A DNA stretch of 63,716 nucleotides, counting the filler, from Rhabdomonas costata (lineage: Eukaryota): the NCBI GenBank assembly GCA_019059605.1. It is 36 parts of 36 records of this genome, joined end to end, with 100 filler letters (N's around TTAATTAATTAA, not from the genome) between each part and the next. Parts side by side here need not be neighbours in the genome. Positions count along the whole stretch, not along the records: positions 7,087 to 8,758 come from JAHMHO010010914.1; 35 more parts are not named here. One strand, 5' to 3'. Positions 6,401 through 23,631 of this stretch are shown here, piece by piece. Numbering within the stretch: the stretch's first letter is position 1; every line of letters starts with the position of its first letter. The translations under genes and the position numbers were made by a program. The notes below the pieces were generated by a model. That model saw nothing but the letters and a program-made list of their open reading frames with translations. It searched no databases and was not told where the DNA came from.

Positions 6401-7193
6401 GTGTTCGCCCCCGCTGCCCATGTCCGCTTCCCAGTCTCACCGTGGGCCATACACCAAGAATCGCCCCTTTCCTCTGCACCGGACTCGAGCGTCGCTGTCG
6501 GTCGAGAGCCCTCTCAGCACAGCATGGTACCTCACGGATGCCTCCTACTTCCCGGACACCTCTGAGTTACCTTGCCTCCCGATTTACATTACTGAGGTCC
6601 CTGGAACGCATCCAAGATGCAAGCTCCAGAAGAACGCGCCAGCGGTGGCCCTCGTAGACCTTTGGAAGACTCTCCACCGAGTCTTGCGCAACGGTTGGTA
6701 TACTTTGCGAGGACGCCACTAAAGGGTAAACCTTCAGAGAACATGCGAGCATGGGGATGGCTGTCCTGCTCCGTGTTTCTCCATTGCCTCATCCTCCATA
6801 GCCAGCTGATTGCTAGGCCTCATTCACTCGCAGCGAATGTTTTGAATCTGCGACGGAGTCTTGTTTTGTTATTTTCCTGCTTCACCTCGTCCTCCCCGAA
6901 GCTTTGCCGTGTTTTTGCTCTCTCGAAGCATGTGAACCTTTTCGGAGACATTCACTGCCCCCCCACCCCCCAAACACACCCACCACNNNNNNNNNNNNNN
7001 NNNNNNNNNNNNNNNNNNNNNNNNNNNNNNTTAATTAATTAANNNNNNNNNNNNNNNNNNNNNNNNNNNNNNNNNNNNNNNNNNNNGTTTGTTGGTGTGG
7101 GTGTGGGTGTGGGTGTGGGTGGGTGTGAGTCAGTGAGTGAGTGAGTGTGCGTGTCTTTGTGTCTGTGTGTCTGCGTGTCAAGGGGGGGTTCAG

Positions 7194-7789
7194 GTTTACC
7201 GTGAGGCGGATCTGCTCAGCCCCCCAGCTCGAGCCGTGCAGACCACCACGGTTCCCGCTGGTGGGGCAACCGTGGTGGAGATGGATGCCATTGTGCCCGG
7301 CAACTACACCCTGATTGACCACTCCGTCTTTCGGGTGGACAAAGGCTGCGGTATATGTCCCCGGGTGGTTGTGGCAGCGTTTGGTTGTGACCTTCTTTTC
7401 TCTTGGTGCGGGAGGTTCGGGGTCTCGATTGAGCTGTATTCACAAAGATGACAGACTGTTTTTAGGGGGTTCCCTCATGGCTTGTCGAGGATGTGGCGGG
7501 CAGCACGTGCTGCAGGGGGAGGGTATTGGGTAGAACTACACGATAATGGTTGTGGTCTGTTCATCAAGGATAGTTGTGCAGGGTAATTATGCTTGGTTCC
7601 TTGGTTCCTTACTGAAGCAGGGGTACCACAAAACCTCTGTTCTTGTATCCTTAATTGTAATCTGCCTTTTTTTTTTACATCTGCACCTCAGTGGGCTTTC
7701 TGAAGGTGTCGGGGCAGAACCCCAGGAAGGAGATCTACGACTCCAGGGACCGGCCCACACCTTGTCCAGGGTGCAAACTACACAACTAA
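7194..7789 (+). CDS. nirK: Copper-containing nitrite reductase, last two exons
   Basis: Exons 7194-7350 and 7692-7789 (GT-AG, phase 1) give [84 protein letters not shown], with the NirK QTTxVPxGG and PGxYxxxDHS motifs. Confidence 0.92.
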
Positions 7790-8858
7790 GGGTCCCGCCA
7801 TAAGCGGGGCTTCAGCTGCAGCAAGTTTTCTTTTTTTCTTTCGCACAGACTGCATTTCAGAATAAATTGTTCGTATACCATTCGATTATTTTTTCTTTCT
7901 GTATTTTTTATTCTATCTCCATGGTCTCCATGGTGCAGTTAGTCTTAGCTGATGGTGCACCCCTTCCCATCGTTGTCTTCTTTGGCCCACCTCAGAAGGG
8001 CGCCTTGTATCAATACGCTTCCTTTGAAGTTTGTCATTTGGGTAGTGGGTGAGGTGGCGGAGCACAGGGGATTGCAGTGAAAGGAAGGAATGGAGGAGGG
8101 TAGGGGAGAGAAAGACGGAGGGTTTGGATTCGGGGTTTTGGGATTCTGAAATTCACGTCGCAAGTCCTGTGAACCGTTGAGATGCATCATCTTCCTGAGG
8201 TTGGTGAGGGTGGGGGTTGTCATTGCACCGTTGCACCCTACCTGGGATTTAGTCTAGGGAAGGCAAATATGCAAGGCCTGCACTCATCAGAAGAGTGGGT
8301 ACGCTGGAATCGGAGAGCAGAAACCACTGGAAACCATTTGTCGAGCATGGCCATAATGCCTGGCGACGTCCCAATTTTAGACAATATCACATAATATTTG
8401 GCCCATTATATTTTTCTTGGGGTTACACACCCAGAACCCGACCTATCCTCCGATTAAAGATGCGACGCATACCACAAAAAGTCGACCTCCACCCCAGTCG
8501 CAAAGAACCTGACGAAGAGCGTCCAAGGCGGAGATGTTGCCTTGCTGATGATGACACAACCACTCCGCCAGGGTGGAAACTCCAGGCACTCCAGTGAGAC
8601 ATCAGATCATTCAGCTGCTCAACTGACAGTTTTTCCCCTTTCACCTCACACTCTCTGTTGCGCTCTTCCAGATCTTTTCTTCTGCTCCCTTTCTGTGTGT
8701 TGGCATCCTTCTGAGTACCTTGTCGAGAATACTTCTGCACCCTCCCCTACCAACCCCCNNNNNNNNNNNNNNNNNNNNNNNNNNNNNNNNNNNNNNNNNN
8801 NNTTAATTAATTAANNNNNNNNNNNNNNNNNNNNNNNNNNNNNNNNNNNNNNNNNNNN

Positions 8859-10529
8859 TGGGGCCGTGAGGTCATTGTACGTGAAGAATGGCTGCAGCTT
8901 TGACATCAGCAGGCCAGCGGACCAAGAGGAATAATACGGAAAGCTCACCAGGTGAAGGGTGTGCCCGGCAATACCCCCGTTGCTGTTTATCTGCGCAAAC
9001 GCCGCCTGCACGCCTACCTTCTGCAAAGCAGCTGTCGGGGAGTCGCTGAGGTAGGCGACACCGAAGCGAACTGGGCGCTGCAACGACGTCTGGGGCTGCG
9101 AAGCGCACTGCCCGCTGAATCGAAACACTCCGTCAACGGCTTCCGTGGGCTCTCCAGTGCTGTCACCGTGGACCATCCAGACCTGCCTCAAGCCCTGGTT
9201 GCACTGGCCCCATAAGAACGGCCCCAAGGAAACCGTGTCCAGCACATATGTAGACGCACTATACAGAGTACTGACAAAGCCATCAGAAGACCGCAGCTGC
9301 TGAACGCTCATTTTTTGAAGGGCCGCTATCACAAGGCGGCCCGTGAGGTATCCTTCCAGCGAAAGCGAAGATGGAGAGCCTGAAACAAGGGGAAGTGCAC
9401 TGAGGTAATGACTGACCAATGGATGAGAGATGCTGGACAGCGGCTGGACCACCTGGTTCACATAAACTTGGCTTGCATCAGAATCAAGAAGGTCGTACAG
9501 GCCATCCCCAACGCTTGAGGGACACAAGTAGAGCATAACCTCAGCAGGAGTACCTTGCCAAATGGCCTGGGCTTGCGAGATAAACTGCGCAGCCACATCA
9601 GTGGCCGCCCAAACAATAACGGCACCTGGCTGGTGAGGCTGAGCGTTCCTTGCTAACCGAATAAGGGCACTGGTCACCTCACCTCTGGAAGAGATACTGG
9701 CGTTGCTGAGCAACGTGAGCTGGATCCGAGAGAGCGACTCCAAGACAACCGACATGGCCCATTGACCAAGAGTGTCGGACTGATAAAACAAACTGAATCG
9801 GGTGACGCCTCGAACCGACGCCCCGTAATGGATCAAAGCATGAATTTCATCCTTCAGCGATGCTCGAAGGTTGATCACCAGATGATTTGTTGTGTTAATG
9901 GCAAAATCTTCGGAAACCGACCCGATAAGCGCTTTGCCCGCGGCAGTACTAAGGTCGGAAGCCACTTCAGTGGAACCACTGCCGTAGAACCCGGCAAGCG
10001 CTGTTACCTCCTGTAGCAGGCGCTCCGTGTTGCGAGCTGCAGTGGTTACGTTGCCAAAATCGTCGAGAGTCCAAAGCTTCAGCCGGTGCCCTGAAATGCC
10101 CCCGGCCTGATTCTGCTCTTCAAAGGCTGCTTCCAATCCTTGCTTCAGTGCCACCCCGGCAGCTGCAGAGGTTCCGGACAGCGGCGCGGACTGCCCCAAA
10201 ACCACAAATCCATAGGGTGACAATAAGCTGGGGTCACTTATGCAGCCACTCTCCGAGAAGCTGAAGGTGTCATTGGGAAGAGTCTGAAAGGCTCCTTGAT
10301 AAACGCTCGTCATCCACACCTTTCTCATCCCTTGATTGCAGCTGGTGCTGTAGGGGCCGATCACAAGCTGGCTGACAACCACAGAAGATGCCTTGATCAG
10401 CGCCTGAGAAAAACTCGCAGGATTCATCAACGCTGATTCAGGGACGTCCTTAAGAACCTCCACTGCCAACCGCACATTCACGTATCCCTCGAATGACACA
10501 GTTGAATGCGACAAGGAGGAATTGTACTC
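8859..10529 (-). CDS. Protein with tandem type-1 periplasmic-binding (Venus flytrap) domains; likely receptor ectodomain; open at both ends
   Basis: Frame is open across the whole contig; LGQSAPLSG...GLEAAFEEQNQAGGISGHRLKL...DD and a second GVQAAFAQINSNGGIAGHTLHL; two EGY...GP...CNQGxRxVW domain ends. Confidence 0.85.
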
Positions 10530-15410: not shown

Positions 15411-17141
15411 TGGACCAGGATGCCTCGAAGAGGAAACGTGAGAAAAAATCGAGAAGCAACGAATAAGAAATGAAGAGTAAAAACGAAAGAAAAGAAAACA
15501 AAAGAAAACCAAGAGTGGAGTGCGGCAAAGGATTAAGTTGCAAGATAAAACATGCAAACAAAAACATACGTGACAACCGAAACTCAGATCTGCACCGCAC
15601 ATATGACTGGGTCGAAATCAAAACTCTACGAACCCTTCCCCAAAAGCGGCCCGTCACAGAATCCAGTCTTAAAATACAGAACAAAGGTGGGCCTTCGCAG
15701 TCAGGAATACTTACACGACGCAAAGCAGCAAGGCAGCTCCACTCAGAAGTAATGTGGGTATGAGCCACATTTGACCGCATTCAACTCTTGGAATAATTCA
15801 ACTTGTCAACATCAAACCAAAAGCCTTGGCTACACCACCCCCNNNNNNNNNNNNNNNNNNNNNNNNNNNNNNNNNNNNNNNNNNNNTTAATTAATTAANN
15901 NNNNNNNNNNNNNNNNNNNNNNNNNNNNNNNNNNNNNNNNNNTGTTGTTGGTGCGCGTAATAACAAGGGGGAGTTATTCAACTCAAGTCAGGGTGCTTAG
16001 AACAGATGAAGTTCGGAAAGAGCACTCAAGGGCTGAAGGCTCAAGACAGGAAAAATCTCTCTTAGATGAATCTCTCTTAGGCTGTTTTTGTAATTACCGA
16101 ACAAATAGGATGTCTAGTGCTTAAGCCTTCCATTTTCCCAGAACTGAGTGCCAACACTGGGGTATGCCACGCTGCAGGGAATCGATGCCTTCCCAGCGAC
16201 AAACACTGAATTTAAGCATACACAAAAGCAGATAGCAGAATTTTCCCCACCTCATCTCTCCCTCTAACAGGCTTACTCTCATCAACCAAGAAGCATGAGC
16301 AGCAGTCGCTGTCGAACTCCTGGGCTGTAAAACTGGAACAGGTAAGACTCCACGTCGTCCCAGACAAGAACACGGCCAGGATCGGCGGAGTAGAGCTGCT
16401 TGTCCCGAACCTGTGAGCATGCCCATTCCTCTTTCCAAGATGACCACCCACCTTTGAAACACCTTTGAAACCCGTCGTACCATTCTCGAGCTTTTCAAGT
16501 GAACTAAGGTGAGGAGGATCCGGAAGAATCTGCAAGGTCTTGCTAGCGCCTTCTGGCGGTTATGTTACGGTGGTGGCTCTTCTAATCTCTCCTGCTGCCG
16601 TGGGCCGGTTCTTGAACCGAGTGTGGGGTTGTTACTCACACGATCGGTCTTTCGTGTACGATGTGGCCTGCTCGAGCCTTTGTTCATTTGCTGAACTCGG
16701 TGGATTTCCTCTGCTTTTCAGGGAAAGGGCCTCGGCCTTCCACTTCAGGAGGTCTTGCAGGAGCACTCCTGGTGTGGATCATCCTCTAGACCTTTGCCCA
16801 AAACCCTGAGTGCCTTTGGGTGAAACCAGCTGATCGGGCTGCAGACGAAGACGGGACGATGGTGCTGCCGACAGAATGAGGTTCCAGTGCGCGACCACCA
16901 GTCGAAGTGTGAAGCAATGGAGACGAGACCTGTTCTCTTGGTGAGCCAGAAGAGGCGTCATCTCCAACAGACGGAAGCCTGGAAACGTTTCGGAAAGTGG
17001 CATGGGAGAAAAGTCCCCCGTCAAAGAAAACGAAGCCTACGAGCTCATAACAGGTTGACGAGGGCGTTTACAGGACAAAAATTATTCGCAGTCTCAAGCA
17101 TCCCGAGCTTCATTAATAATAGAAAAAAATAATAGAATTTT

Positions 17142-17609
17142 TTAAAAAATAATAGAATTTTGCATTTTATGTTTCCAATAATTCATAGGATCTAGTTTAA
17201 GAAAACTTTTTACAATATATTTTTGACCATTTTTTTTAAGCGTAATTGTAAAAATAGTCATACTAAAAGTTCCATAATTTTTTGCAGAAACAATTTGGTC
17301 TCCATTAATTGTAGTAAAAGAAAAATCATGTTTATTAATTTGAGACCATATCTCTTTATTATTAATATATTCTTGAATTATCTTTCTTATTACTAGCTTA
17401 TCTTTTGCAACTGAAGGTTTAATAATTTTTTTACTGTCATCATTTGTAATTTTTACAGGATTAGCTAATTTATTTTCAGAAAAATGTTCTAATTCAGAAT
17501 ATCCCATTGAATATTTTTGATTTGAATGACCAATAAATTCAAGTTTTTTTACTTGTTTATTTCTATTAAGCTTATTATTTAAAGGTTTGTCTGCTATTGT
17601 TTTAAACAA
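17142..17609 (-). CDS. AT-rich hypothetical ORF, 5'-truncated, foreign to the surrounding DNA
   Basis: 155 open codons in very AT-rich sequence, rich in K/N/I, no introns; composition changes abruptly near 17110. Confidence 0.6.
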   Translation of the reverse strand: MFKTIADKPLNNKLNRNKQVKKLEFIGHSNQKYSMGYSELEHFSENKLANPVKITNDDSKKIIKPSVAKDKLVIRKIIQEYINNKEIWSQINKHDFSFTTINGDQIVSAKNYGTFSMTIFTITLKKNGQKYIVKSFLKLDPMNYWKHKMQNSIIF

Positions 17610-17721
17610 AAAANNNNNNNNNNNNNNNNNNNNNNNNNNNNNNNNNNNNNNNNNNNNTTAATTAATTAANNNNNNNNNNNNNNNNNNNNNNNNNNNNNNN
17701 NNNNNNNNNNNNNGTTGTTGG

Positions 17722-21256: not shown

Positions 21257-21625
21257 TTCTTTTATAATAGTGCCAAAAGCTTTTACTACAGTTTCAGAGG
21301 ACTTATTTTTTAATGGCTGTGCATACGCTTTTCTTGTGAATATATCAATTGCTAGCAGAATATAATGTATACCACTGTTAGACGTTGCCAAGTTATCCAT
21401 CTGTAATAAATCAACCTGTAATATCTCATTAGGATATTTGGCAATAATTGGAATATATAACTTTGGAATCTCTGGTTTTTTGTGAAGCTGATATGCTTCT
21501 TGATTATTGAGAAAATAATCAACTTGCTTTTTAGTAATTCCTTTATCCTTTACTGCTTCATATAATTTTATTTTGCTTTGAAATCCAGTTAACGGGTCAT
21601 AATAAATCTTCCTTAGAGTATCCAT
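21257..21625 (-). CDS. Polinton-type retroviral-like (rve, DDE) integrase, N-terminal part
   Basis: ATG at 21625, 19 nt after the polB stop; LRKIYYDP...LY...FL..QEAYQLHK...QVDL...YILLAIDIFTRKAYAQPLKNKS. Confidence 0.92.
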
Positions 21626-21644
21626 ATACAAATAGATTAGTTAA

Positions 21645-22925
21645 TTATTTTGGTAGTTTGTAATATCCATATGGGAAAGAAGATATTCCATCATTTAGAA
21701 TATATCTCTTGTTATCATATACCGAAAGAGTCTTCTTTTTTTGTTCAACCGTGTATATTTGGTGTTTGAAGGATTTAATAATTGTCATATTATGTGGTTC
21801 ACTAGTCTTATCAATTAGGCATTTTTTATAATCAGAGTATCTTATATTTTTCTTTATAGTCCATGAGCTTACACCTTTCGCAGTTTTCTTTTCTTCTTCG
21901 TTAGATTTTACAAAGGCATACATTTTAGCAGCTAGACCTGTGTACTCAACAATTGGAGAAAATGACTCATCCTTAAACCGACCGATAACTTTTTTATTTT
22001 CATTGCTATGCAGAAATTGATTATAATACAAAACTGGTTCTCTATTTTCAATATATTCATCACTATTATAAACATACTGTTCTGGTTTTATTTCTTCATA
22101 CAAATAAGTGGGGTAATCAGAAAAGTCAAAGTGATTTTTAAACGCCTTATCATCATATATATCTTTGTATAAATCCATAGTCGTTATTTCCAAAAATAAT
22201 GAATCTGTATCAGTAAATAATAATTTAACTTTATCTGCTCCATATTTTCTTTGAAGAACATTATAATAAAAATCATACATTAAATGTTTAGAAAGGTCTA
22301 AAATGCAAGCACCACCAATAATAGGCTTATTTAGCTTAACCTCTTTCTTATGCAAATGTACAGCTACAAGATTTTCATGAAAGATACTACAACTTTTATA
22401 AGTTGGTCTATTGATATACCGTTTTAATTTTTGTCCGTCATTCAGTATTAGCTCAATATTAACATGTTTTCTAGTGTTTTCAAGTTGCTTGCCATACACT
22501 GCATTATTCATTAACTTATAAAACTCTTTCTCGAAGTCATTTTTAGATTTAGATCTTCTCTTAGTATTTTCGTCAATATAGTTTTTCATCCATGGTTCTT
22601 GTCTAAACTGCAGGACTTTGTGAACAGTTTTTAATTTTAGTCCAAGTTGTAACGCTTGCTTTAGGTTCCTATAGTGAAGAATGTAATTATTCTTATCTGT
22701 TAAGTCACAAACTAATTTTTCAACATGGTCACTTGATATGTCCTTTTCGTTTTTAACTTTTGTTGCAAACTCAGATAAAACATCATCAGTAATTAGTCTA
22801 CGTGTTGGACATAATGGATAATATTTATGACTGTCATGAATTTCAATAGGATATTTAAGATCTACCTCAAATATATATCCTACATCTTGTTCATCCTTTA
22901 GATTTAATATTTTTTCTTTGTCCCA
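21645..22925 (-). CDS. polB: Protein-primed family B DNA polymerase, C-terminal part
   Basis: Frame is open from the contig edge: GYIFEVDLKYP...YPLCP...KLVCDLTDKNNYILHYRNLKQAL...KLMNNAVYGK...LFTDTDSL...GRFKDE...KMYAF...AKGV...DNKRY. Confidence 0.95.
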   Translation of the reverse strand, partial: WDKEKILNLKDEQDVGYIFEVDLKYPIEIHDSHKYYPLCPTRRLITDDVLSEFATKVKNEKDISSDHVEKLVCDLTDKNNYILHYRNLKQALQLGLKLKTVHKVLQFRQEPWMKNYIDENTKRRSKSKNDFEKEFYKLMNNAVYGKQLENTRKHVNIELILNDGQKLKRYINRPTYKSCSIFHENLVAVHLHKKEVKLNKPIIGGACILDLSKHLMYDFYYNVLQRKYGADKVKLLFTDTDSLFLEITTMDLYKDIYDDKAFKNHFDFSDYPTYLYEEIKPEQYVYNSDEYIENREPVLYYNQFLHSNENKKVIGRFKDESFSPIVEYTGLAAKMYAFVKSNEEEKKTAKGVSSWTIKKNIRYSDYKKCLIDKTSEPHNMTIIKSFKHQIYTVEQKKKTLSVYDNKRYILNDGISSFPYGYYKLPK

Positions 22926-23631
22926 ATNNNNNNNNNNNNNNNNNNNNNNNNNNNNNNNNNNNNNNNNNNNNTTAATTAATTAANNNNNNNNNNNNNNNNN
23001 NNNNNNNNNNNNNNNNNNNNNNNNNNNTTTTTGTGTGTTAGCCTTTTGCCATCCACAGTGGTTTCCTTTCGTTTCTTCTTGTGAAATCTATTTGGTATTG
23101 ACCCTTGCTACAGTGCTGTGACTTTGTTCATGTTCATGTTCATGTTTCCTTTGATTTCGCAAATTTCCACCACCAGAAAGCATCCAAATTGACTACCTTT
23201 TTTTTTTCCATTTGTTCTTGTGTTTTTTACTTTGTAGAAACGCGTTTCTCACCACCATTTTTCTTTTTATTAATCTTGGGCCCCACAACGATTTCAATAT
23301 TCGAAGAAGCGCGAAAAAATATAGCAAGTTTTCCCGGGGGTTTTGCTTCGAAAAATTGGTCAGTTGCGGACCAAATCAATTGTGTACCTCAATTCGTTTC
23401 CTTTACAAAAGTTTTCATAACATGCGAAATTCGAACTTCAGAGATGTGCCACGGACCGTCAAAAGAGGGTCAATAATGTAATAAATTACAAGCAGACATC
23501 AATCATCCAAAAGCAACCCTAAAACAGTAATATTGCAATTTCATTTGCAGTGGGTTTGTGGCATTATTTCTTCGATTGATTTGATTCTATCGCATCAAGT
23601 GAAAGTGATGAAGTGATGAAATGCACTTGAA

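Follow-up and report, generated by a model that had tools for sequence, protein, structure and literature searches.

We found that positions 7194-7789 of the analysed DNA very probably contain the final two exons of a Rhabdomonas costata nuclear gene, which encodes a two-domain, NO-forming copper nitrite reductase (NirK) belonging to the eukaryotic, mitochondrial-type clade. The analysed DNA (the window, 63,716 nucleotides over its full length) consists of 36 pieces of 1669-1736 bp joined by spacers of the form N..TTAATTAATTAA..N, and nirK is in the piece at 7087-8758. A literature search turned up no paper that connects euglenids with nirK or copper nitrite reductase, and the NirK of this colourless euglenid is apparently the first noted in the group. 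Eukaryotic NirK is known in fungi, amoebae, algae and Naegleria, and separately in foraminifera. R. costata is free-living and facultatively anaerobic, and a nuclear NirK in this euglenid would extend the enzyme to the Euglenozoa. It would also bring a second discobid lineage into the debate over whether nirK goes back to the ancestor of mitochondria or was dispersed by gene transfer, and R. costata would be a culturable organism for work on nitrite-dependent anoxic survival and on production of NO and N2O. The protein is already in a public set, yet it is unmentioned in the text and the searched supplements of the species paper. The gain is therefore an annotation and a hypothesis and not a new kind of system.

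The gene contains spliceosomal introns: one complete GT-AG intron and the acceptor end of another (Table 1). The donor of the complete intron is gctgcg followed by GTATATGT (boundary at 7350/7351), and its acceptor, ...CACCTCAG, comes after a pyrimidine tract. The penultimate exon is directly preceded by the acceptor ...GGGTTCAG (ending ...TTCAG), as read from the sequence. The end of the preceding intron is GT-rich, with microsatellites of TGTGGG, GTGA and GTGTCTGT units and tandem repeats at 7090-7179. Spliced together, the two exons encode the 84 C-terminal residues of the protein, ending PCPGCKLHN (7760-7786) before the stop codon. The penultimate exon encodes a ligand of the type-2 copper, His366 (codon 7320-7322), in the motif LIDHSVF (DHS). 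The last exon encodes a C-terminal tail with Cys400 (7763-7765), Cys403 (7772-7774), Lys404 and His406 (7781-7783). Two other readings of 7351-7691 were rejected. Retention of the intron would give a peptide unlike all homologues, with a stop at 7449-7451. A nonconventional euglenid intron does not fit the canonical GT-AG ends and the pyrimidine tract. Downstream of the nirK stop there was no open reading frame with family support and no Rfam match above chance, and the euglenid spliced-leader 10-mer had no match in the window.

Table 1. Features of the nirK piece, in positions of the window.
Feature	Position	Strand	Comment
3' end of preceding intron	7087..7193	+	incomplete, the piece begins inside the intron; identity to P0003 ends at 7194
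nirK penultimate exon	7194..7350	+	residues 324-375 and first base of codon 376
Spliceosomal intron, 341 bp, phase 1	7351..7691	+	GT...AG; skipped exactly in transcript-derived P0003
nirK last exon	7692..7789	+	last two bases of codon 376, residues 377-407, TAA at 7787-7789
Presumed 3' untranslated region	7790..7870	+	inferred; AATAAA at 7861-7866

A protein of 407 amino acids in EukProt (P0003, labelled EP00906_Rhabdomonas_costata / RCo011480) is 100% identical over both exons. In a tblastn search of the window, its residues 323-375 match 7191-7349 (E 8e-28), and the sole mismatch, at residue 323, marks the place of the upstream intron. Residues 376-407 match 7691-7786 (100%, E 3e-16). The other four matches in the window all had E values of at least 4, and the upstream exons were not found there. 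Only 84 of the 407 residues and one of the seven copper ligands (His366) are encoded in the window, and the rest comes from the transcript-derived P0003. According to passages of the species paper, the fragmentation of the genome precluded predicting genes from it, so that the transcriptome was used to predict the RCo proteins, and the introns of R. costata are tabulated by Trinity and contig identifiers in Table S2 (PMC8219788). P0003 reads straight through 7350/7692 and therefore provides RNA-level support for the splice. The original prediction had placed a GT-AG intron with this junction, and it was correct to the base.

Comparisons with TIGR02376, the PDB and Foldseek support the NirK identity that had been proposed. 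Alone, the penultimate exon peptide matches the copper nitrite reductase model TIGR02376 of NCBIfam at positions 252-299 of 326 (E 1.8e-10), and 35 of its 36 PDB matches at E<=10 are nitrite reductases (best 6.9e-11). Neither short exon peptide had a match in Pfam, and the last-exon peptide had none in NCBIfam. The whole of P0003 matches TIGR02376 with an E value of 3e-84 over profile positions 5-322 of 326; its score is 283.1 bits, and the equivalog cut-off, 296.3, is 13 bits higher. In Pfam, it matches two cupredoxin-type domains, PF07732 (36.9 bits, cut-off 21) and PF07731 (33.1 bits, cut-off 20.4).

These Pfam domains are generic multicopper-oxidase domains, and they and the TIGR02376 score slightly below the curated cut-off are what one would cite for some other multicopper oxidase (laccase, CopA or ascorbate-oxidase type) in place of a nitrite reductase. 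We consider this extremely improbable. The next-best NCBIfam families matched P0003 with E values of 6.9e-9 or worse, 75 orders of magnitude weaker than TIGR02376. The original prediction had allowed that other multicopper oxidases might be the best matches, but among the 107 PDB sequences that matched at E<=1e-20, the best was AniA (1kbv, E 9.6e-95). The best 60 of these 107 are all nitrite reductases or AniA, except 4kns, deposited as 'Multicopper oxidase type 1'. In a Foldseek search with the AF2 model of P0003, the top 50 matches were all NirK (AniA TM 0.89-0.91, normalised to target). The ESM Atlas search returned bacterial NirK clusters only.

The residues needed for copper binding and catalysis are also present, as determined by alignment to AniA. 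The type-1 copper ligands of P0003 are complete and encoded outside the window: His165, Cys206, His214 and Met219 align with His94, Cys135, His143 and Met148 of AniA, which we take to be its type-1 ligands. The type-2 ligands are also complete (His170, His205 and, in the C-terminal domain, His366), and the catalytic residues near the type-2 copper are Asp168 and His315. Further arguments against another multicopper oxidase are the three-His type-2 site and the catalytic Asp and His, which are specific to NirK. Across all 22 eukaryote-type sequences in the alignment, none of the nine ligand and catalytic residues varies.

We placed P0003 in phylogenies of the kind that had been suggested as a check on the prediction, and it is inside a well-supported clade of eukaryotic NirK. 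In the FastTree tree (159 rows), a 104-row clade with support 99 contains P0003 and all the named eukaryotes: green algae, Naegleria, fungi, nematodes, a red alga and a choanoflagellate. In the IQ-TREE tree (69 rows), a 56-row eukaryote clade has support 99/96, and a 60-row clade that includes four bacteria-like basal rows has support 100/100. Euglenozoa are represented in these trees by one sequence, and there is no foraminiferal sequence. Judged by its sequence, the R. costata NirK is an ordinary member of an already known eukaryotic NirK group. The closest database sequence is 66-67% identical to P0003. Metagenome loci came no closer. With a single-protein query, there were 64 pattern matches, none of which was confirmed. 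With an alignment query, there were 80 loci from 589 relatives, all contiguous and at most 56% identical, none closer than the known proteins. The 8-mer of the euglenid spliced-leader 3' end was scattered in these loci and never found at a transcript 5' end.

It is possible that R. costata gained nirK recently by transfer from a green alga or another eukaryote, and not vertically within Discoba. IQ-TREE places Rhabdomonas as sister to the chlorophytes (84/95), within a 32-row clade (96/97) without the Naegleria clade, and a passage of the species paper affiliates ~5% of R. costata genes with Viridiplantae (PMC8219788). However, the support for the sister grouping is moderate, and FastTree leaves the position of Rhabdomonas open. 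AU tests did not reject a grouping of Rhabdomonas with Naegleria (p-AU 0.053) or a wider group that was named after inspection of the tree (p-AU 0.137). In addition, the Rhabdomonas branch is long (0.58-0.71), and Euglenozoa are sampled by this single sequence. We regard a recent transfer as rather unlikely. It is far less likely still that the gene belongs to another eukaryote in the culture or libraries (e.g., a fungus, an alga or an amoeba). R. costata was cultured with an uncharacterised mixture of bacteria (PMC7580956), contamination is acknowledged as a problem in a passage of the species paper (PMC8219788), and P0003 is beside green-algal NirKs, albeit with the moderate support given above, and away from Naegleria, a fellow discobid. 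In contrast, the co-cultured organisms that have been reported are bacteria only, and the gene is in both the DNA and RNA data sets and survived the authors' decontamination. The nearest database sequence is only 66-67% identical, and the source is therefore no known fungus, alga or Naegleria; the grouping with Naegleria is compatible with the AU tests. The GC contents of the piece (0.513) and the exons (0.61; GC3 0.73; 0.48 for intron 7351-7691) agree with the values for the R. costata genome (51.6%) and transcriptome (58.3%) given in a passage of the species paper (PMC8219788). A bacterial contaminant was rejected because the gene has an intron, and on this point the original argument holds. 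The euglenid host that it assumed is also borne out, by the Rhabdomonas costata label on the identical protein in EukProt. Our assignment of the gene to R. costata rests on this label, the composition and the absence of a closer relative, and it is in all likelihood correct.

The protein ends in a Cys-x-x-Cys-Lys-Leu-His tail, a motif found in 150 of 164 relatives. The original prediction had called this a fungal-type tail. Fungi do have it, in the form C-x-G-C-K-L-H-x in all six named fungal sequences, but the tail does not single out fungi. It occurs across the eukaryote-type clade, in 100 of its 104 rows, and all 22 aligned sequences of this type have Cys400, Cys403, Lys404 and His406. A bacterial sister clade (Elusimicrobiota, Planctomycetota and Omnitrophota) shares the tail in a variant form, CxxCLVHP, in 43 of 45 rows. 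The Cys-x-x-Cys-Lys-x-His tail as a feature of the clade is an observation made here, with no published definition behind it. The last-exon peptide matched no chain in the PDB, and no solved structure contains the tail; in the AF2 monomer of P0003 its pLDDT is below 50. The invariant tail probably binds a metal or forms a redox-active disulfide.

In composition, the N-terminus of P0003 resembles a mitochondrial presequence, and a putative hydrophobic anchor comes after it. Residues 1-35 include eight Lys/Arg, no Asp/Glu and ten Ser/Thr, and a hydrophobic helix is predicted at 31-53 in the AF2 model. Homologues from Chlorella, Ditylenchus, Chaetomium and Cyanidium have the same bipartite N-terminus. 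NirK is in the mitochondrial proteome of Acanthamoeba, according to a passage of the report (PMC13632651), and for the NIRK of Chlamydomonas a mitochondrial location is predicted, with up-regulation both in darkness and on nitrate (PMC7412212). RCo011480 was absent from six supplementary files of the species paper, including the predicted mitochondrial proteome (PMC8219788).

Established NirK enzymology and these relatives together suggest how the R. costata enzyme might work. NirK is a homotrimer, and the R. costata protein would form one too. An electron would enter at the type-1 copper and pass through the Cys206-His205 bridge to the type-2 copper at the subunit interface. There, His366 would be supplied by the neighbouring subunit and nitrite would be reduced to NO. 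Based on its N-terminus and on the fungal, algal and Acanthamoeba relatives, the enzyme would enter mitochondria and be anchored on the side of the intermembrane space. The respiratory chain would supply it with electrons, probably at low oxygen, and another enzyme would dispose of the NO; candidates include the hybrid-cluster protein and the flavohaemoglobin-like protein that are listed for R. costata in the table of its predicted mitoproteome (PMC8219788). In its fullest form, our proposal is a nitrite-reducing branch of the mitochondrial electron transport chain, in which NirK in the intermembrane space would be fed by cytochrome c, the hybrid-cluster protein would convert NO to N2O, and the pathway would aid month-long anoxic survival; the tail would give this NirK subfamily a third site, so far undescribed, for a metal or for redox chemistry. 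With all of these parts together, we think that the proposal is unlikely, and we offer it tentatively. If it exists, the nitrite-reducing branch would give the Euglenozoa their first example of denitrification-type respiration.

The protein could also be a genuine NirK with a non-respiratory role, in NO signalling or nitrite detoxification, and no part in energy conservation or anoxic survival. This is a serious possibility, although we lean against it. The authors of the Acanthamoeba work state, in one passage, that NirK functions 'remain unknown' (PMC13632651), and the physiological role of algal NirK is described as unresolved (PMC7412212). The supplements of the R. costata paper had no matches for 'nitric' and 'nitrate', and no dedicated NO reductase (P450nor or NorB type) or dissimilatory nitrate reductase was found in them; there are six 'P450' rows, of which one listed row is of the sterol type. 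RCo011480 was also not among the orthologues recovered for the mitochondrial proteome of Euglena gracilis. On the other side, a passage of PMC4686598 describes a coupling of NirK in fungi with both ATP synthesis and the mitochondrial chain, and R. costata endures a month of anaerobiosis, as stated in one of the species paper (PMC8219788). The presequence-plus-anchor architecture would put the predicted enzyme at the site of cytochrome c, as the respiratory reading supposes.

The R. costata NirK is similar to several known systems. Like the fungal mitochondrial NirK (Fusarium oxysporum type), P0003 has two domains, all ligands, a basic N-terminus followed by a hydrophobic segment, and the C-terminal tail, and both are in the same well-supported eukaryotic clade. 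In contrast, fungal proteins are 49-55% identical to P0003 and constitute a separate subclade (100/99) that does not include Rhabdomonas. The matches of five fungal-like genomic loci (L011, L014-L016 and L018) are contiguous from residues 73-85 to 406, and these loci therefore have no intron at either of the R. costata positions. In the supplement search, P450nor, the partner enzyme in fungi, was not identified for R. costata. The NirK proteins of Naegleria gruberi and N. lovaniensis (P0083 and P0079), from other Discoba, are 59-61% identical to P0003 and in the same size class (389-407 amino acids), with the tail C-P-[GN]-C-K-L-H-x and a short basic N-terminus and hydrophobic segment; neither tree groups them specifically with Rhabdomonas, though such a grouping is AU-compatible.

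The nearest named sequences are the chlorophyte NIRKs (Chlamydomonas, Chlorella, Edaphochlamys and Pleodorina; 63-65% identity), the maximum likelihood sister group described above. The algal proteins are longer (452-574 amino acids), with long N-terminal extensions, and the algae also have CYP55 and flavodiiron NO reductases, neither of which turned up for R. costata. In PMC7412212, the supplementary tree of NIRK includes 'Excavata'. Among solved structures, AniA of Neisseria gonorrhoeae (1kbv, 5ue6) is closest, with 45-48% identity, and every ligand and catalytic residue aligns with P0003. However, AniA is a bacterial lipoprotein without the Cys-x-x-Cys-x-x-His tail, and the alignment stops at query residue 387. 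Foraminiferal NirK (Globobulimina; PMC6783311) was reported deep beside prokaryotes, outside the fungal and eukaryotic clade that contains P0003. Its eukaryotic origin was argued, as is that of P0003 here, from canonical spliceosomal introns and from genome and transcriptome evidence.

We confirmed the nirK segment in the window as the 3' end of a genuine nuclear nirK, interrupted by spliceosomal introns, in Rhabdomonas costata. By direct reading of the sequence, the exon coordinates, the 7350/7692 junction, the DHS motif and the C-terminal tail (Cys-x-x-Cys-x-x-His, ending PCPGCKLHN) were exactly as in the original prediction. The two exons join in phase 1 to give 84 residues. GC content was 0.61 in the exons (GC3 0.73), 0.48 in the intron and 0.49 downstream. 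An unspliced reading past the donor gave an unrelated peptide with a stop at 7449-7451. An AATAAA hexamer is located at 7861-7866, 72 nt past the nirK stop codon.

Features of the nirK segment, from direct reading of the sequence. Positions are those of the window; a slash marks a splice site.
Feature	Position	Strand	Remarks
Intron, 3' end	up to 7193	+	piece starts inside this intron; GT-rich microsatellites
Acceptor before penultimate exon		+	...GGGTTCAG/
Penultimate nirK exon (exon 1)	7194-7350	+	52 aa
Donor	7350/7351	+	gctgcg/GTATATGT
Intron	7351-7691	+	341 bp; pyrimidine tract, then ...CACCTCAG/
Last nirK exon	7692-7789	+	31-aa peptide; TAA at 7787-7789
Tail-encoding sequence	7760-7786	+	C-terminal tail

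The predicted GT-AG splice was borne out by a protein from the same organism. A search for longer proteins related to exon 1 retained 55 of 117 candidates (E<=0.001), the best being P0003, an R. costata protein of 407 aa (EukProt name RCo011480; accession EP00906_Rhabdomonas_costata_P008042 by exact look-up) with 100% identity over 100% of the query. The C-terminus of P0003 is precisely the spliced reading. The 39,456 RCo proteins were predicted from a transcriptome, since fragmentation of the draft genome precluded gene prediction there (PMC8219788). Because P0003 is derived from the transcriptome, it provides independent RNA-level evidence for the splice. In tblastn of P0003 against the window, residues 323-375 matched 7191-7349 (E 8e-28), the sole mismatch being residue 323, directly before the acceptor at which a second nirK intron ends. 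Residues 376-407 matched 7691-7786 (100%, E 3e-16), and the window had no further match better than E 4. That is, the window carries only residues 324-407 of P0003.

The composition of the nirK-bearing piece (7087-8758, 1672 bp, GC 0.513) fits R. costata. The draft genome has 36,105 contigs longer than 1 kb (N50 1194), GC is 51.6% in the genome and 58.3% in the transcriptome, and all 29 complete introns checked manually had GT/AG (PMC8219788). The window (1-63716) is an artificial chain of 36 pieces of 1669-1736 bp, separated by an N-run, TTAATTAATTAA and another N-run, so neighbouring pieces are unlinked in the genome. The piece at 8859-10529 is a single open frame on the - strand (557 aa, no evident intron) with Peripla_BP_6 (E 1e-35) and 'adenylate cyclase, periplasmic binding protein-like' domains, an architecture of the receptor-cyclase type. 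Two pieces are markedly AT-rich, 15943-17613 (GC 0.42) and 21257-22927 (GC 0.29), the latter with a 426-aa open frame (GC3 0.23, no Pfam match). These may be organellar, contaminant or AT-rich repeat.

The identification as NirK was supported by family, structure and ligand comparisons. Exon 1 alone matched the NCBIfam model for copper-containing nitrite reductase, TIGR02376 (E 1.8e-10, profile positions 252-299 of 326), and 35 of its 36 PDB matches at E<=10 were nitrite reductases (best 6.9e-11); the odd one was a CDP-archaeol synthase (E 1.2). Neither short exon peptide had a match in Pfam, and the last-exon peptide had none in NCBIfam. With full-length P0003, 107 distinct sequences in the PDB matched at E<=1e-20, led by AniA from Neisseria gonorrhoeae (1kbv, 9.6e-95) and the Ralstonia pickettii core. 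Its match to TIGR02376 (E 3e-84, positions 5-322 of 326) scored 283.1 bits, 13 bits below the curated equivalog cut-off of 296.3, and the next NCBIfam family was CopA-type (E 6.9e-9). Cu-oxidase_3 and Cu-oxidase_2 were both above the Pfam cut-off.

Alignment to AniA, with a position check, placed the type-1 copper ligands of P0003 at His165, Cys206, His214 and Met219, the type-2 ligands at His170, His205 and His366, and the catalytic residues at Asp168 and His315. We take their roles to be those of the homologous AniA residues. We aligned 22 eukaryote-type sequences, in which all nine positions were invariant; only His366 (codon 7320-7322) is inside the window. We built an AlphaFold2 model of P0003 on this alignment (mean pLDDT 75.9). 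The two-domain core was confident (residues ~85-330, blocks at 84-96). A Foldseek search of the PDB with the model had only copper nitrite reductases in its top 50; AniA matched at E 6e-36, with a target-normalised TM of 0.89-0.91.

We compared R. costata NirK to its relatives. A search with full-length P0003 scored 8000 candidates, of which 2949 reached E<=1e-10. In the best 120 of these, the closest besides P0003 were metagenome proteins with 66% and 58% identity. Named relatives among the same 120 were from Chlamydomonas, Chlorella, Edaphochlamys and Pleodorina (63-65%), Naegleria lovaniensis (61%) and N. gruberi (59%), the nematodes Aphelenchoides, Ditylenchus and Panagrolaimus, Cyanidium, several ascomycetes (49-55%) and one Omnitrophica bacterium (56%). 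These 120 had no second euglenozoan label; the EukProt proteins P0080 and P0133 have no species name. The choanoflagellate Salpingoeca punica is the source of another relative, P0069. In two scans of metagenome contigs, nothing was nearer than 56% identity to R. costata NirK, and no transcript had a spliced leader.

In a FastTree phylogeny of 159 rows (rows of at least 280 aa, with both exon peptides and five near-duplicates removed), every named eukaryote was inside a 104-row clade (support 99) whose sister was a group of 45 bacteria-like rows bearing signal peptides. An IQ-TREE analysis (LG+G4, 69 chosen rows) recovered a 56-row eukaryote clade (99/96) with four bacteria-like rows basal to it (100/100 for the 60). 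R. costata NirK grouped with named eukaryotic NirKs, apart from bacterial forms. Fungi formed a separate subclade (100/99). Rhabdomonas was within a 32-row clade (96/97), with the Naegleria and nematode clades outside, and inside that clade Rhabdomonas was sister to the chlorophytes with moderate support (84/95). AU tests did not reject a grouping of Rhabdomonas with Naegleria (four rows, named beforehand; p 0.053) or a six-row group chosen after viewing the tree (p 0.137). Based on these supports and tests, membership in the eukaryotic clade is solid; the placement within it is tentative, and the gene may have come by vertical descent or by transfer. Four NirKs labelled as from plant-parasitic or free-living nematodes, P0075, P0087, P0111 and P0155 (Aphelenchoides, two from Ditylenchus, Panagrolaimus), grouped together with support (99/99) among the eukaryotic NirKs. 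NirK in an animal would be unusual; two of the four are on contigs of 214-233 kb, and contamination is possible.

The original prediction noted a similar CxxCKLH tail in fungal-type enzymes. The tail was present in all six named fungi, but it is common to the whole subfamily. Of the 164 relatives retrieved with 280 aa or more, 150 ended in Cys-x-x-Cys-x-x-His. The form C-x-x-C-K-x-H was in 100/104 rows of the eukaryote-type clade (P0080 ends C-x-x-C-G-L-H-D and three rows are tail-less), C-x-x-C-[LMF]-V-H was in 43/45 rows of the sister clade, and none of the nine outgroup rows had a tail. Cys400, Cys403, Lys404 and His406 were invariant in 22/22 eukaryote-type sequences. The bacterial variant was in four of 80 loci kept from named prokaryote genomes, all four MAGs (L081, L082, L083 and L085: one Elusimicrobiota, one Planctomycetota and two Omnitrophota). 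No PDB chain matched the last-exon peptide (seven hits, all antibody light chains, E>=0.39), alignments of solved NirKs to P0003 end short of the tail, and residues 397-407 of the model were below pLDDT 50. From this distribution and the absence of a structural match, the tail is a conserved, structurally uncharacterised trait of the entire NirK subfamily and not a fungal signature. It may have a metal-binding or redox role. Among the matches listed for nirK and CXXC, no title or abstract gave an account of such a tail.

Five fungal-like genomic loci (L011, L014, L015, L016 and L018) have the tail CVGCKLH[AP]. They align to P0003 contiguously, from residues 73-85 to 406, over both intron positions; therefore, the R. 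costata introns are absent from them. Two bacteria-type NirKs with the tail (P0016 and P0025, ~525 aa) are fused at the N-terminus to a hemerythrin-like domain (PF01814), which is uncommon.

Residues 1-35 of P0003 include eight Lys/Arg, ten Ser/Thr and no Asp/Glu. Over the first 120 residues, mean Kyte-Doolittle hydrophobicity peaks at 33-51 (1.12), and a helix was modelled at 31-53. Homologues from Chlorella, Ditylenchus, Chaetomium, Cyanidium and Naegleria likewise start with a basic leader and continue into a hydrophobic segment; the bacteria-like relatives begin with an ordinary signal peptide. This layout appears to agree with published accounts of related NirKs. In fungi, NirK is coupled to the mitochondrial chain and ATP synthesis (PMC4686598), Chlamydomonas NIRK has a predicted mitochondrial location and is up-regulated in darkness and with nitrate (PMC7412212), and Acanthamoeba NirK is in an experimentally defined mitochondrial proteome, 'functions ... 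unknown' (PMC13632651). Against a mitochondrial role, RCo011480 was absent from six supplementary files of PMC8219788, including the predicted mitoproteome table, and the part of the supplement that was searched had no 'nitric' or 'nitrate' entries. Mitochondrial localisation and function are thus inferred.

R. costata has cristate mitochondria, yet survived a month of complete anaerobiosis, and its predicted mitoproteome table includes two hybrid-cluster-protein transcripts and a flavohaemoglobin-like protein (PMC8219788). Bacterial hybrid-cluster protein is described as an NO reductase (PMC13632651). It is possible that either protein serves as an NO sink in R. costata.

The original prediction knew of no nitrite respiration or NO production described for euglenids, and our literature search found no report of euglenid NirK. 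The words nitrite, nirK and denitrif never occur in the main text of PMC8219788, nor do these or nitrate in a comparison of euglenozoan metabolism (PMC7052976). Titles and abstracts on nirK or copper-containing nitrite reductase with euglenids or Euglena gave nothing relevant, nor did those on nitrite reductase and mitochondria in Euglena gracilis, and work on the assimilatory plastid enzyme identified no nitrite reductase in the Euglena gracilis and E. longa transcriptomes. Within the literature covered, NirK in euglenids appears to be unreported. One review places NIRK 'in Excavata', with no taxa named (PMC7412212). The interest of R. costata NirK is in a testable link to anoxic survival and in its conserved, unstudied tail. 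The protein sequence was already public (EukProt); R. costata extends a known kind of eukaryotic enzyme to a new lineage.
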